A stretch of 64,000 nucleotides of DNA from Agriterribacter sp. (GTDB lineage: Bacteria > Bacteroidota > Bacteroidia > Chitinophagales > Chitinophagaceae): positions 1,618 through 65,617 of the forward strand of contig NZ_DAOMOZ010000001.1 of the NCBI RefSeq assembly GCF_035444585.1. Reading direction: 5' to 3'. Each line of letters opens with the position of its first letter. The first letter of the stretch is position 1. Positions 26,011 through 56,537 of the stretch are shown piece by piece. The notes beneath the pieces were generated by a model. That model was given only the letters and a program-made list of their open reading frames with translations. It was not told the origin of the DNA and did no database searches. The translations under genes were made by a program, and so were the position numbers.

Positions 26011-26772
26011 TTAACCGGAGCCAAATACTTTCTTCAGTATTTCAGATGTCCTGGCCAAAGGATCTTTCCTGATCTGCTGCTCTTCCTGTGCTACCTGGTA
26101 AAAGATCCCGCTTAAGGCTTTTTCCGTTACATAGGCCGAAAGGTCGGGATTGATCTTATCGGCTGAAAACTTATTATAAGCAGTAAATACGGTATTCCAG
26201 TATTTGGTGGCGTCTACTTTTTGGAGTGATTTTTCTATCACCGGCCGAAAAGACGCGGTAAGCGCTGTTGTGGTTTTGCCTTTCAGGTAATCGGTTGCTG
26301 CAAAATCTCCCCCTTTTAATATGCCTGCCGCATCCTGGATGCTCATTTGTTTGATGGCATCTACAAAGATCGGAGCTGCCGATTTTGCTGCATCTTCCGC
26401 AGCGCGGTTCATGGCAAGTATGGCCTCATCTACCTGCCTGCCCAATCCAACGGCTCTTAGTCTTTGCTCTGCTTTTTTGGCTTCTTCAGGCATTAATATT
26501 TTAATAGCGGCGTTGGCAAAATACCCATCAATGGAAGACAGGTTTTTGCCTGCTTTTTCTGCGCCAACAGACAACGCCTCTTTGAGTCCGGCCGCAATAT
26601 CATCTTTGCTTAAACTACTGCCTTTTCCTAAAACATTGCCGAGCACACCGGCTGATGAAGAAGAATCTTTTTTATCACCCAGTACTTTTTTGAGCAACTG
26701 GGCATGAGCGGAAGAAGAAACAAAAAGGAACGCAACTGCGGTTAAATAAAGAATGCCTTTATTGATTTTCAT
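26011..26772 (-). CDS. DUF4197 family secreted protein
   Basis: AGLKEAL, MNRAAEDAA, ATDYL and EEQQIRKDP motifs; start moved to MKINKG (signal peptide). Confidence 0.85.
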   Translation of the reverse strand: MKINKGILYLTAVAFLFVSSSAHAQLLKKVLGDKKDSSSSAGVLGNVLGKGSSLSKDDIAAGLKEALSVGAEKAGKNLSSIDGYFANAAIKILMPEEAKKAEQRLRAVGLGRQVDEAILAMNRAAEDAAKSAAPIFVDAIKQMSIQDAAGILKGGDFAATDYLKGKTTTALTASFRPVIEKSLQKVDATKYWNTVFTAYNKFSADKINPDLSAYVTEKALSGIFYQVAQEEQQIRKDPLARTSEILKKVFGSG

Positions 26773-39819: not shown

Positions 39820-40920
39820 TTATAAAAGTTTATATATTTTCCCCGGCAGGCAGGTTATTATACCCTGCAGTTCAAGGTTCAATATAGCAGCGGCAATCAT
39901 GCTGCTGCTAAAGCCGCAACCGGGGGTGATCTCATCAATGGAGGCGGTTTCTTTTTCCCGGATGATTTGCAGGATCGCTTGTTCATGCGGCGTCAGTTCT
40001 GTGAACAATTCCTTCTGCATTACCTTTTTCTTTTCAGGAGCGCCCGACCAGTTCATGAACTGCAGGATATCCGTTGCCGATGTAATTAAAGCCGCTTTAT
40101 TGCTCCTGATCAGGTAATTGCAGCCTGTGCTTTTGCTATCCGTTGCCCTCCCGGGGAGCGCAAACACATCCTTGTTATAGTTATTGGCCAGTTCTGCTGT
40201 TATCATGCTTCCCCCGTTGATATTGGTTTCAATAACTACAGTAGCATCAGAAATACCCGCCACAATGCGGTTCCTTTTTGGAAAATTTTGTTTATCCGGT
40301 TTGGTGCCCGACATGAAATCTGTAAGCAGCCCGCCATTTACCGTCATTTCTTTTGCGAGTATTTTATTGGCGGCAGGATAAATGCGGTCGAGCCCATGGG
40401 CGAGCACCCCAATGGTGAATAATTTGTTTTTTAGCGCGCACCGGTGTGCCAAAGCATCTATGCCGTAAGCCAGCCCGCTCACGATAACCACGTCATTTTG
40501 AGCTAAATCTTCAATTATCCTGCAGGTCATTTCTTTACCGTATTCGGTGTGATTGCGGGAACCGATGACGGATATGACCCTGTTCTGGTTTAGATTGGCG
40601 TTCCCCTTGTAATATAAAAGAGAAGGCGCATCATAGCAATGCAATAAACGCTTCGGGTAGGTTGTGTCTATTTGTGTGAGCGTTGCTATTTTGTATTTCT
40701 CAATGAAGCGAAGTTCTTCTTCCGCTCTGCTGAAGGCATTAAATGTTTTGATGCTTTTTGACCGGATAATGCCTATTCCGGGAAACTTATCAAGGAGGGA
40801 TTTGCGGGCTGCAAAAATACTTTCTGCACTGCCAAAATGCTGTAACAATGCTTTTGCATGCACATCGCCAATATGCGGAACCATGGTTAGCGCAATATGG
40901 TAAAGAAGATCGCTTTGCAT
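39820..40920 (-). CDS. dprA: DNA-processing protein DprA
   Basis: [23 protein letters not shown] and GGSMITA motifs; C-terminal winged helix. Confidence 0.95.
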
Positions 40921-40993
40921 ATGTGCAGGCGGTGGTGTTGTTCAAAAATTTTACACGGTCATAAAAAGAAGTATCGCGGGAACAAAATACTAT

Positions 40994-41074
40994 AAAAAAC
41001 CCCCTCCCGATAAATCGGGGGAGGGGCACTAATCTTTTAACCGTTAACCATTAAACCTTATCCTATGAAAAGCC
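40994..41074 (-). ncRNA. Candidate sRNA copy A (divergent): GGCUUUUCAUAGGAUA motif plus GC hairpin and U-tract
   Basis: tatcctatgaaaagcc at 41059-41074; cccctcccga/tcgggggagggg hairpin beside an A-run. Confidence 0.45.
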
Positions 41075-41236
41075 GAATTTAAATCGTTTTTTTAATTTAA
41101 GTATTTATACGGCGTAAATTTTTTTCTTTTCTGGCTGCCGTAGCCGGCAAAGCGTCATTTTATGGTTGCGATAGTGTTGAGAATCAATGTTATGACCAAC
41201 TTAAGGGGGAATTTTTTTTATTAACGGAGATCATAT

Positions 41237-41296
41237 AAAAAAAGGGCTGGATGGAAATCCTGCCCCGTTTCTAAATCCAATATCCTATGAAAAACC
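41237..41296 (-). ncRNA. Candidate sRNA copy B
   Basis: Minus strand GGTTTTTCATAGGATATTGGATTTAGAAACGGGGCAGGATTTCCATCCAGCCCTTTTTTT; nearly identical to copy C. Confidence 0.55.
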
Positions 41297-41451
41297 AATA
41301 ATGAGACCAATATTATACTGCAAACGTTGCACAACACATTAATTTTATTTTAAAAAAAGCAAATATTTGAAAGGAAAGGCGGTGGCAGGTTGCTAAATTT
41401 GGATGTTCTGGAAGAGAGGAATTAAAAAGAGTGTCCGAAAAATGGGTTAAT

Positions 41452-41510
41452 AAAAAAAGGGCTGGATGGAAATCCTGCCCCGTTTTAAATCCAATATCCT
41501 ATGAAAAACC
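41452..41510 (-). ncRNA. Candidate sRNA copy C
   Basis: Differs from copy B by a single indel; same hairpin and U7. Confidence 0.55.
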
Positions 41511-41557
41511 GGACATATAACGATATATCCGATTTTTATATTGTTGCAAACAAAAAA

Positions 41558-42136
41558 TTATTTCCAGGTTTGAACAAAATTTTTTCTGTATTGTTCAAAA
41601 GGTGTTTTACCGTAATGGCCCTCGCCAAAATATTTCAAAATCAGCTCCATGTCAGGCGGCTTTAAATAACCGGGAATTACCTGGGGCGCCGAACCGTCGG
41701 CGGGTAAAATAACTGTAGAGGGATAAGAAAGTTGTCCGCCGGTTAACAGGATAGCATAATCATTTACCCGGTAATTTTCATTGTATTTATATTGTCTTCC
41801 GCGCCAGGTAAGTATTTCCTTCGTTTCTGCATTTAATTTGACCGGATAAAAGTTTTTGTGAACATATTGAATAACATGGGCGTTTGTATAGGTGTTCCTG
41901 TCCATTACCTTACACCAGCCACACCAATCGGTATACAGGTCTATAACAATGGCTTTTTTTTGGGAAGCAATTTTAGCTTCCGCTTCAGCAAGTGTTAGCC
42001 ATTGCAGCTTCTCATTTTCTGCAGGGTTGATTATAGTTGTATCTGTTGTATAATCAAAAGGGATGCCTGCAGGCGTGTTCATGCCATATAGCAGGATACT
42101 GGTAGCAACACAAAGAAAAATGCCGGATATTTGCAT
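41558..42136 (-). CDS. Thioredoxin-fold protein (DUF255-like)
   Basis: YTDWCGWCKVMD CxxC; signal-like N-terminus; TATATTTG -7 box at 42156-42163 supports this start. Confidence 0.85.
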   Translation of the reverse strand: MQISGIFLCVATSILLYGMNTPAGIPFDYTTDTTIINPAENEKLQWLTLAEAEAKIASQKKAIVIDLYTDWCGWCKVMDRNTYTNAHVIQYVHKNFYPVKLNAETKEILTWRGRQYKYNENYRVNDYAILLTGGQLSYPSTVILPADGSAPQVIPGYLKPPDMELILKYFGEGHYGKTPFEQYRKNFVQTWK

Positions 42137-42171
42137 TTTGATTCGTTTATTTTTACAAATATAACTCACAA

Positions 42172-54785: not shown

Positions 54786-56537
54786 ATGAAAATAAATATA
54801 TGGAAATACAGCCTTTTACTTTTACTTTCAGTGGGGGTTGGATGTAAAAAAGATTTTTTGAACAAGTACCCGCTTGACCAGATCACGACGGTGGATTTCT
54901 GGAAAACAGGCAATGACCTCAAATTATATGTCAATCAGTTTTATCCTGCCGCATTCAACCAGCCTATGGGTGATCAGCTAAACGGAGATTTTGCTGCTGA
55001 TGCCCAGAGCGATGATGTAGGCCTCGTGATCGCCAATCCCAGGCTGCAGGGTTCAAGGGTAGTGCCTGCAACGGGGGGATGGGGTTATACCAATATCCGC
55101 GCCCTGAATGTTTTTATGGCGAACTACGATAAAGTAGAAGACCCTTTTAACAGCTATAAAGATTATGTTGGAGAGGCCTATTTCTTCCGGGCATTCTTTT
55201 ATTTTAACCTGGTGAAAGAATATGGGGATGTGCCTTATATTGGCACCCCGTTAAATACCAATTCGGAAGAGCTGTATATGCCCCGTGCTCCGCGCAACCA
55301 GGTGGTTGATTCGATCATTGCAGACCTGGATGAGGCCATTGAGCTCCTCCCCGCAGGTAAGCAGGAAGGTGCTACAAGACTAAGCAGGGAAATTGCATTG
55401 TTGTTCAAATCGAGGGTTTGTTTATATGAAGGTACCTGGGAGAAATACCATGTGGAGGATGAATTTAAAGTAGACAATCCCCAGCCGCAGAAATATCTTG
55501 AACTGGCGGCACAGTCGGCTAAGGCAGTGATAGAATCGGGAACCTACGCTGTTTATTCCACTGGTGAGCCTGAATGGGATTATTTTAACCTTTTCAGCAG
55601 GGTGGATTATGCCACAAATCCTGAGGTGTTATTATGGGAAAAGTTTGACCTGAGCCTCAAAAAAGGAAATGCTTTTCAGTTCCAGATCGCCACGGGAAAA
55701 TCCGGCGGTATAGGGTTGACCAGGTCGTTTGTTGACGCTTACCTCTGTAAGGACGGGAGACCTATTTATTTGAGTAACGGTGCCGAAAACCCGCTGTATG
55801 AGGGAGACGGCACACTGGAAAAAACAGCAGCCAACCGGGATCCGAGGTTTACACAAACGATCTTTACGCCCGGTTTTCCGCTCCAGGCCGTGGGTTCAGA
55901 CACAACGTACTTTCAAAGGCCCACGGTAGCAGATCCTGCCCATACCCGGTGTCCTACAGGTTACCAGATGAACAAGTTCCTGAATTTTGATCCTGTTCAT
56001 CATGCCTCCCTTGAAACATTACCCGTTGGTTATACCGGGTGGATCGTGTTCAGGTATGCAGAAGCGTTGCTGAACTATGCAGAAGCGAAAGCCGAATTGG
56101 GCACGATAACCCAGCAGGATATTGATATGAGCATCAACCGGCTTCGCAACCGGGTGGCTATGCCTCCTTTGGATATAGCTGCGATCGAAGAAGATCCTAA
56201 CTGGCAATTTCCCGACTTAACGCCGGTGCTTAATGAAATAAGACGCGAACGCCGCGTGGAGCTCATTTTGGAAGGATTCAGGTGGAACGATCTGGCCAGG
56301 TGGGCTGCTGCCGAAAAAACGCTTGTAGGAAAACGTCCGTTGGGTGCTAAATTCAACACAACAGACTATCCTGATCTGAATGCCTCTGATTTTACATTGA
56401 CCGATGGCTATTTTGATCCGCTTAAGTCGCAATTGCCTGGCGGTTACGGCTTCAGGCCTGACAGGGATTATTTAAGTCCCGTTTCAACGGAAGAATTAAC
56501 CTTAAATAAACAATTGGTACAAAATCCCGGTTGGTAA
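54786..56537 (+). CDS. SusD/RagB lipoprotein
   Basis: Lipobox GVGC; GEAYFFRA, YGDVP, RYAEALLNYAEA, RERRVEL and QNPGW. Confidence 0.93.
   Translation: MKINIWKYSLLLLLSVGVGCKKDFLNKYPLDQITTVDFWKTGNDLKLYVNQFYPAAFNQPMGDQLNGDFAADAQSDDVGLVIANPRLQGSRVVPATGGWGYTNIRALNVFMANYDKVEDPFNSYKDYVGEAYFFRAFFYFNLVKEYGDVPYIGTPLNTNSEELYMPRAPRNQVVDSIIADLDEAIELLPAGKQEGATRLSREIALLFKSRVCLYEGTWEKYHVEDEFKVDNPQPQKYLELAAQSAKAVIESGTYAVYSTGEPEWDYFNLFSRVDYATNPEVLLWEKFDLSLKKGNAFQFQIATGKSGGIGLTRSFVDAYLCKDGRPIYLSNGAENPLYEGDGTLEKTAANRDPRFTQTIFTPGFPLQAVGSDTTYFQRPTVADPAHTRCPTGYQMNKFLNFDPVHHASLETLPVGYTGWIVFRYAEALLNYAEAKAELGTITQQDIDMSINRLRNRVAMPPLDIAAIEEDPNWQFPDLTPVLNEIRRERRVELILEGFRWNDLARWAAAEKTLVGKRPLGAKFNTTDYPDLNASDFTLTDGYFDPLKSQLPGGYGFRPDRDYLSPVSTEELTLNKQLVQNPGW

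Follow-up and report, generated by a model that had tools for sequence, protein, structure and literature searches.

What do three small and similar units packed into a gene-free gap of an Agriterribacter genome encode, and on what might their products act? In the window analysed here, the whole 64,000-nt stretch of DNA from this member of the Chitinophagaceae, TATCCTATGAAAA occurs three times, always inside a 637-bp gap (positions 40921-41557; about 640 bp in the initial annotation) between dprA and a gene for a thioredoxin-like protein, against a composition-based expectation of ~1e-4. Both neighbors lie on the minus strand: dprA (39820-40920; PF02481, E 3e-74) forms the downstream flank, and the thioredoxin-like gene (41558-42169; PF13899/PF03190), which encodes a hydrophobic N-terminus and has a possible alternative start at 42136, forms the upstream one. 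Read on the minus strand, the units have a common layout of a G-start, UUUUCAUAGGAUA, a U-rich linker, a hairpin and a U-tract, which bears out the initial description of three siblings with one core. Unit A (41074-40994) is a predicted 81-nt sRNA of a 'long' subfamily, with a seed, a long U-rich linker, a GC hairpin and a U-tract. Unit B (41296-41237; 82 bits with model R1) and unit C (41510-41452; 83.2 bits) are predicted sRNAs of 60 and 59 nt that belong to a 'short' subfamily; they are as near-identical as first described, without a difference over 36 nt and 91% alike over a 33-nt stretch.

That these units belong to a multicopy family of trans-acting sRNAs with an anti-start-codon seed, as the initial annotation had proposed, is well supported by comparative evidence: promoter-like motifs, a covarying terminator, the lack of a conserved opposite-strand ORF and a likeness to the FopS sRNAs of Bacteroides. 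In an alignment of 68 units, the four loop-proximal terminator pairs, which make up the inner stem that covaries in unit B, are formed without exception (272/272 cells) and show 35 double changes, against 0/500 shuffles and 19–45% pairing in slid controls. Variation is found in the hairpin and not in the unpaired part, whose invariance is, in the seed, partly due to selection, the search pattern having contained the seed. The predicted structure of the seed amounts to a 4-bp invariant helix only, and the CAU letters that would face a start codon are invariant in the short RNAs. Folding z-scores of the single copies are modest (−0.03, −1.8 and −2.0), and a generic terminator scan of the gap returned 0 sites because of its strict stem rule. 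The plus strand carries the short frames reported at the outset (MKSRI*, MKNQ* and a longer one; 5, 4 and 54 aa), and the doubt then cast on peptide coding was justified: the 124 opposite-strand frames that begin at AUG have a median of 19 aa and unrelated sequences, and no conserved peptide, as a type I toxin-antitoxin or small-peptide locus would encode, was found among them.

The family extends well beyond the gap. Eight exact copies of a 13-mer, each followed by a terminator, are present in the genome (87.6% complete), and two further divergent members bring the total to 10; some dispersed copies lie after or between convergent genes. An exact 21-mer was found in 27/35 other genomes of the family and in 0/265 other genomes of the order, and a 22-nt pattern recovered at least 120 stretches; among the matches listed, 80 records have a name, and the majority of these belong to Chitinophagaceae or to genera within it. 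A model of the kind that the initial annotation had envisaged, built on the chosen set of 68 short-type units, gave matches with E ≤ 0.05 in 34/40 genomes of the family, and 40 of its mid- and low-scoring matches fall into further subfamilies that all keep UUUUCAUAGG and differ in the downstream part, giving a Chitinophagaceae superfamily of at least five subfamilies. The 28-nt long-type motif of unit A recurs in 19/60 other family genomes and a 16-nt motif of the same unit in 21/24 other genomes of the genus. The cluster itself sits beside dprA in 20/25 genus genomes, this one counted, and also beside the thioredoxin-like gene in 19; three units are present in 16 of these orthologous clusters and four units in the other 4.

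Each copy in the cluster is preceded by its own promoter-like motif on the minus strand, and these motifs recur, by eye, at specific positions in orthologous clusters whose spacers have diverged (CAAT-N~17-CGTT for C, TGCAAC-N17-GTCT for B and an A-tract motif for A). Upstream of unit A (41075-41105), an A-tract is followed by C(G/A)(A/T)T-like letters at −12 to −9 (41086-41083), again seen by eye in the orthologous clusters; several long-type copies in other genera are preceded by GCAAC-N17-CATCT. Unit B follows an ECF-type promoter-like motif (41304-41331), TGCAAC-N17-GGTCT, with its −10 element at −12, in agreement with the ECF21 motif GCAACC/CGTCT predicted for Bacteroidetes in the supplement of PMC7826278. 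Unit C has a second ECF-type motif (41519-41544), ACAAT-N17-CGTT, with the −10 element at −12, which is kept, by eye, in 20 orthologous clusters. Across 121 upstream regions, which lay outside selection by the search pattern, TAnnTTHR stands exactly at −12 in 70 (0.8 expected from shuffles) and an ECF-type pair occurs in 23 (0.5 expected), with no region having both promoter types; TAnnTTTG is the Bacteroidota housekeeping box according to the text of PMC7366714. Units A, B and C have no canonical sigma-ABfr promoter, whereas 70/121 short-type copies elsewhere do. The ECF-type assignments of B and C are based on a predicted motif, and we infer from these patterns that each copy in the cluster may answer to a different sigma factor, with B and C under ECF-type control and most dispersed copies under housekeeping-type control. 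The genome encodes 39 sigma-70/ECF matches over cut-off. A loose ECF pattern gave 97 genome matches vs 36 for a reversed control, and therefore no regulon was defined. The GTTTGCA that the initial annotation noted upstream of B and C is present, but its offsets differ and it is not kept in orthologous clusters, and it was rejected as their common promoter. Elsewhere in the genome, a short-subfamily member with the FopS 5' start (G000:C8:7862-7920, plus strand) lies directly 3' of the last gene of an ECF sigma/anti-sigma-like operon, where a 3'-UTR origin is possible.

The reading favored here, at a probability of roughly 0.65, borrows its mechanism from FopS. As described in the text of PMC11697453, the FopS are 14 paralogous RNAs of 65–70 nt in Bacteroides thetaiotaomicron, conserved in Bacteroidaceae by word-size-28 BLAST; they were shown experimentally to block SusC translation at the start codon, and they are antagonised by the RRM protein RbpB, which binds them. 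By analogy, units A, B and C would be separate genes for short trans-acting RNAs whose unpaired 5' end pairs over AUG-AAA-A start regions, mostly of mRNAs for exported proteins, and so would block the initiation of translation. With a different sigma factor behind each copy, several signals could feed into one pool of nearly identical regulators, and longer multi-site RNAs encoded elsewhere would bind the seed, act as decoys and set a threshold. The initial annotation is partly upheld by this reading; the link to FopS, the promoter classes and the multi-site partners were absent from it.

Candidate targets were evaluated on 3802 starts from gene calls made for this analysis, with a crude rule for signal peptides and with duplex energies computed without accessibility. 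ATGAAAA starts mark 237/756 signal-peptide-like genes vs 152/1559 others, an odds ratio of 4.2, and are found in 23/41 SusD and 15/72 TonB-receptor genes. The two example starts named in the initial annotation do exist, at 26772 on the minus strand (253 aa) and at 54786 on the plus strand (583 aa). Its proposal of complementarity to the MK starts of exported proteins survives for the UUUUCAU core, which alone appears selective for such starts as a class, and fails for the rest of the seed: against 828 MK/MR-type starts, the part 3' of CAU does not outdo 12 shuffled controls in pairing, 2487 leaders show no enrichment of its complement, and extended leader pairing was accordingly discarded. MK-start mRNAs for exported proteins are likely targets, and mRNA leaders leave the remainder of the seed unexplained. 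TonB-dependent receptor starts are not enriched (B seed, 0/79 in the top 5%, p = 0.13; A seed, 7/79), and on the B-seed count SusC targeting by these sRNAs finds no support, in an enrichment test that is weak, the FopS seed itself reaching 3/79 TonB-receptor starts on this genome.

The genome was then scanned for clusters of sites complementary to the seed, and four intergenic loci stood out: C225 with 7 sites (−156 kcal summed), C257 with 8 (−139), C268 with 4 (−78) and C57 with 2 (−43), the best of 400 random AT-rich windows giving −33. For C225, C257 and C268, none of 100 seeds whose 3' part had been shuffled comes close, nor does any of 100 shuffled elements, and a Bacteroides-type FopS seed finds 1, 0, 2 and 0 sites on C225, C257, C268 and C57, respectively. 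Two other candidate clusters, C108 and C144, did not hold up as multi-site elements; at G000:C108:5400-5600, two near-identical repeats of ~100 nt lie beside an N run and upstream of a methyltransferase-like gene. The four loci of this genome were picked for their seed match, and homologues are the fairer test: in 24/25 homologous windows, of which two cover one element and one is a coding false match, none of 20 shuffled seeds reaches the real seed.

C257 and C57 represent one family of non-coding elements (G000:C257:5630-6050, minus strand; C57:9790-9960, plus strand; L298, L299 and L304-L329), which is present in 13/60 other family genomes and combines a housekeeping promoter and a 13-bp closing stem with 3–15 anti-seed sites. 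Among 25 5' domains from 14 genomes, 24 have the housekeeping box on the anti-seed strand and none has it on the opposite one, and the elements with such domains hold 3–15 sites per 600 nt on the anti-seed strand vs 0–4. The closing stem is 98.7% paired; its 24 one-sided changes all yield G-U on the anti-seed strand only, and its 7 double changes fall at one pair. Many members also have a conserved GCTCTTG-like motif ~38 nt upstream. In 152 sites from 24 elements, seed positions G12-G13 and U18-A21 are paired in 85–100% and G1-U7 in 73–86%, while the anti-start letters C8-U10 pair least (41–58%) and AUGA occurs in 20 sites only, a combination of well-paired flanks and a poorly paired center that has the shape of a target mimic. 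C225 (G000:C225:6540-6800, minus strand; L297), found in 2/60 family genomes, and C268 (G000:C268:3736-4136, plus strand; L001:1380-1780), found at least in part in 24/24 genus genomes, appear to be unrelated multi-site elements; the former also has a site for the long seed of unit A, and the latter ends in a long conserved stem and lies upstream of a sucC-like gene. Some genus genomes have several copies of the C268 element.

On three of the four loci a hairpin and U-tract can be discerned by eye on the anti-seed strand. Rfam has no family for three of the four and gives a weak reverse-strand FopS match for the fourth. In two sludge RNA libraries, contigs of 314–363 nt from relatives, three of them at a depth of 29–50, match the 5' domain, a weak hint of expression given that DNA may occur in such libraries. 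The stem motif falls to background outside the family (4/137 with one mismatch vs 3 control matches), and genomes whose seed is a variant yielded neither site clusters nor a stem from which a compensatory seed-site change could be read. At G104:C1:3483819-3484220 (minus strand), a short-type sRNA is followed, ~380 nt downstream and in the same orientation, by a stem motif of the decoy type. If the long elements act as the multivalent decoys that they resemble, their predicted binding to the sRNA seed would account for the constancy of its 3' half, which has no match in mRNA leaders.

The same elements invite a different account, in which the long multi-site RNAs serve as the chief partners, with the short RNAs governing their folding, stability or load of protein (e.g. 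of RRM proteins), and pairing with mRNA starts is minor or a relic. This account is unlikely on the whole. In its favor, the long elements and not the mRNA leaders match the invariant 3' half of the seed, SusC-type enrichment is lacking, and the stem motif was seen in 7/9 family genomes that have the short type and in 0/4 that lack it (Fisher p = 0.02, the genomes being kin and not independent). Against it, the motif is missing from two genomes that do have the short type, UUUUCAUAGG is kept in all subfamilies while their 3' halves differ, and CAU is invariant in the short RNAs even though it is paired least with the long elements, which means that another partner must hold CAU in place.

Start-codon blocking with decoys, the reading preferred here, leaves the relationship to FopS to be weighed. 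By their predicted anatomy the units are FopS-like, and they are not filed as FopS members. Like FopS, the family is multicopy, its members measure ~60–80 nt and carry a single-stranded 5' seed with UUUUCAU and an intrinsic terminator, and the host has RRM_1 proteins, three in this genome; most members have a TAnnTTTG-type box 4 nt before the first G, the same spacing as in true FopS genes. Of the FopS R1/R1' seed, the UUUUCAU core and UAUU(G/A)GAUUU recur, with a 2-nt insertion between them, and the likeness beyond CAU exceeds the gene-start background only in part. Unlike FopS, which PMC11697453 reports for Bacteroidaceae, the units come from a Chitinophagaceae host, their seed continues with AGGAUA instead of GGUA, A–C have ECF-type or unassigned promoters, no SusC enrichment is seen, and candidate RNA decoys accompany them; no RNA decoys for FopS are reported in the literature texts searched. 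The string 'Chitinophag' is absent from the main text of PMC11697453 and from the text of six of its supplement files. Full-length alignment to the FopS model RF04319 gives 20.7 bits for A and 19.6 and 19.0 bits for the others (E 1–5) against a gathering cut-off of 56, and 0 matches exceed the cut-off across the genome. Matches to SorY, MicC and other Rfam families in the gap are chance, terminator-driven ones.

Common descent with FopS is likely. The same blocking mechanism might also have arisen independently, from a terminator and a gene-start stretch read backwards from a new promoter, and this origin, while improbable, draws on several observations. Most weak FopS-model matches in other Bacteroidia look like reversed gene starts and reach 35 bits, above the units themselves, and such scores were rejected as proof of homology; a search of 220 class genomes with two promoter-plus-seed patterns produced no convincing intermediate, only a Chitinophagaceae cloud, FopS-like units in four other families and other matches that are mostly reversed gene starts (the weak-match and pattern-search tallies take in two unpublished genomes, G386 and G507, with one weak match each, and their sequence underlies none of the conclusions); and the likeness of the short-type B and C to FopS beyond CAU, over 15 nt, is reached by 6–52 of 630 gene starts. 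Unit A, however, scores 27 beyond CAU over 30 nt against one FopS copy, where the best of 630 reversed MK gene starts scores 23, even if 12/630 equal it against another copy, and the offset of start from promoter and seed is as in FopS, one subfamily opening with the FopS 5' end GUGUUUUUCAU.

Several side observations touch on FopS itself. Four families of the class (f52, f75, f82 and f91; L137, L138, L234, L254-L271) have typical FopS genes, complete with promoter and terminator, so FopS may extend beyond one family. At L139-L165, common Bacteroidota gene starts, when reverse-complemented, come close to the 5' half of FopS, a hint that such sRNAs can come from a terminator and a gene start read backwards. 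One outside match of the search in 220 class genomes, L244:1500-1570 in a 1.3-Mb genome of another family, has a box that resembles a promoter, the sequence UUUUUCAUGG and a strong hairpin with a U-tract, possibly an unrelated unit or a chance arrangement.

The initial annotation had offered, as a second option, protein-titrating RNAs of the CsrB/RsmZ kind acting through repeated GGAU motifs, and this found little support and is now very improbable. GGAU does recur in the seed and hairpin of B and C, and RRM_1 proteins are present, RbpB being known to bind FopS (PMC11697453), but the genome, at 87.6% completeness, has no match to the CsrA family (PF02599), the GGAU of the hairpin is free to change, with compensation, conservation lies in a long single strand and not in loop motifs, and in the long elements it is the GGA-rich strand that lacks a promoter. 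That the units are not RNA genes at all, but plain terminators, repeats of the REP kind or genes for small peptides on the plus strand, is barely credible: their plus strand resembles a Bacteroidota gene start, dispersed copies follow or separate convergent genes and no expression was seen in RNA runs, but promoters are position-locked on the seed strand, the opposite-strand peptides are not conserved, conservation favors the unpaired part over the hairpin, and no Rfam repeat or terminator family exceeds its cut-off in the gap, which settles a check that the initial annotation had proposed. The RNA runs yielded contigs of relatives and no transcripts of this organism, 20 runs sharing ≤8% of words with it, and in two size-fractionated runs nothing was found for the units.

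Full-text literature searches brought up no report of such RNAs in Chitinophagaceae or of a Bacteroidota sponge, although large motif tables in preprint supplements might hold the elements; the passages searched in the review PMC13750123 and in the preprints 10.1101/2025.09.08.672848, 10.64898/2026.10.21.760802 and 10.64898/2026.09.22.753630 likewise mention neither. These sRNAs form a new branch of an established kind, and the novelty lies in their separate promoters and their putative multicopy, multi-site decoys. According to PMC11697453, GibS (PMC7366714) has the R1 seed in common with FopS and a non-canonical promoter; compared by description, it sets a precedent for one seed under two promoter classes, and unlike the family here it has one copy only and carries a second seed. 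Sponges that act on sibling sRNAs have precedents, namely QrrX for Qrr1-4 of Vibrio cholerae (PMC9732341) and CrfA for SisA-D of Caulobacter (PMC12559287). Each is transcribed independently and base-pairs with the seed of a set of paralogous sRNAs, as is proposed here; as described in those texts, however, both are single sponge genes in Hfq-using bacteria, whereas the candidates here are multicopy with 3–15 predicted sites each.

More broadly, the findings could point to a many-to-many RNA circuit in the Chitinophagaceae, in which a superfamily of start-codon-blocking sRNAs, with copies wired to different sigma factors, is buffered by multicopy multivalent decoys (up to 15 bulged target-mimic sites per molecule) and acts on protein export as a class, in a phylum without Hfq; the odds of this wider picture fall somewhat short of even. 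Multi-site microRNA sponges exist in eukaryotes, and such a circuit, if true, would be their bacterial counterpart. In enterobacteria, the sigma-E-controlled RybB and MicA place an sRNA that curbs envelope protein synthesis behind an ECF-type promoter, an analogy only, the sequences being unrelated. Control of the FopS type has so far been described only for gut Bacteroidaceae, as far as the text of PMC11697453 goes, and the environmental look-alikes in Chitinophagaceae suggest that blocking of MK starts is an old or repeatedly invented throttle on exported proteins in Bacteroidota. With near-identical B and C behind different conserved promoters, the trio offers a direct test of why sibling sRNAs are kept, and the long elements, if true decoys, would constitute an unusually multivalent bacterial sponge whose sequence-defined sites can be mutated singly.

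Two smaller features of the units deserve mention. A 13-bp hairpin at window positions 41500-41535 covers the −10 element and the 5' end of copy C and could terminate read-through from the thioredoxin-like gene; it was rejected as a conserved feature, being strong in this genome (−13.8 kcal) and in a few close relatives and weak in most of the 20 loci. Finally, a copy that is a hybrid of the short and long types, complete with a terminator, lies on a 43-kb viral contig (L253:301-390).
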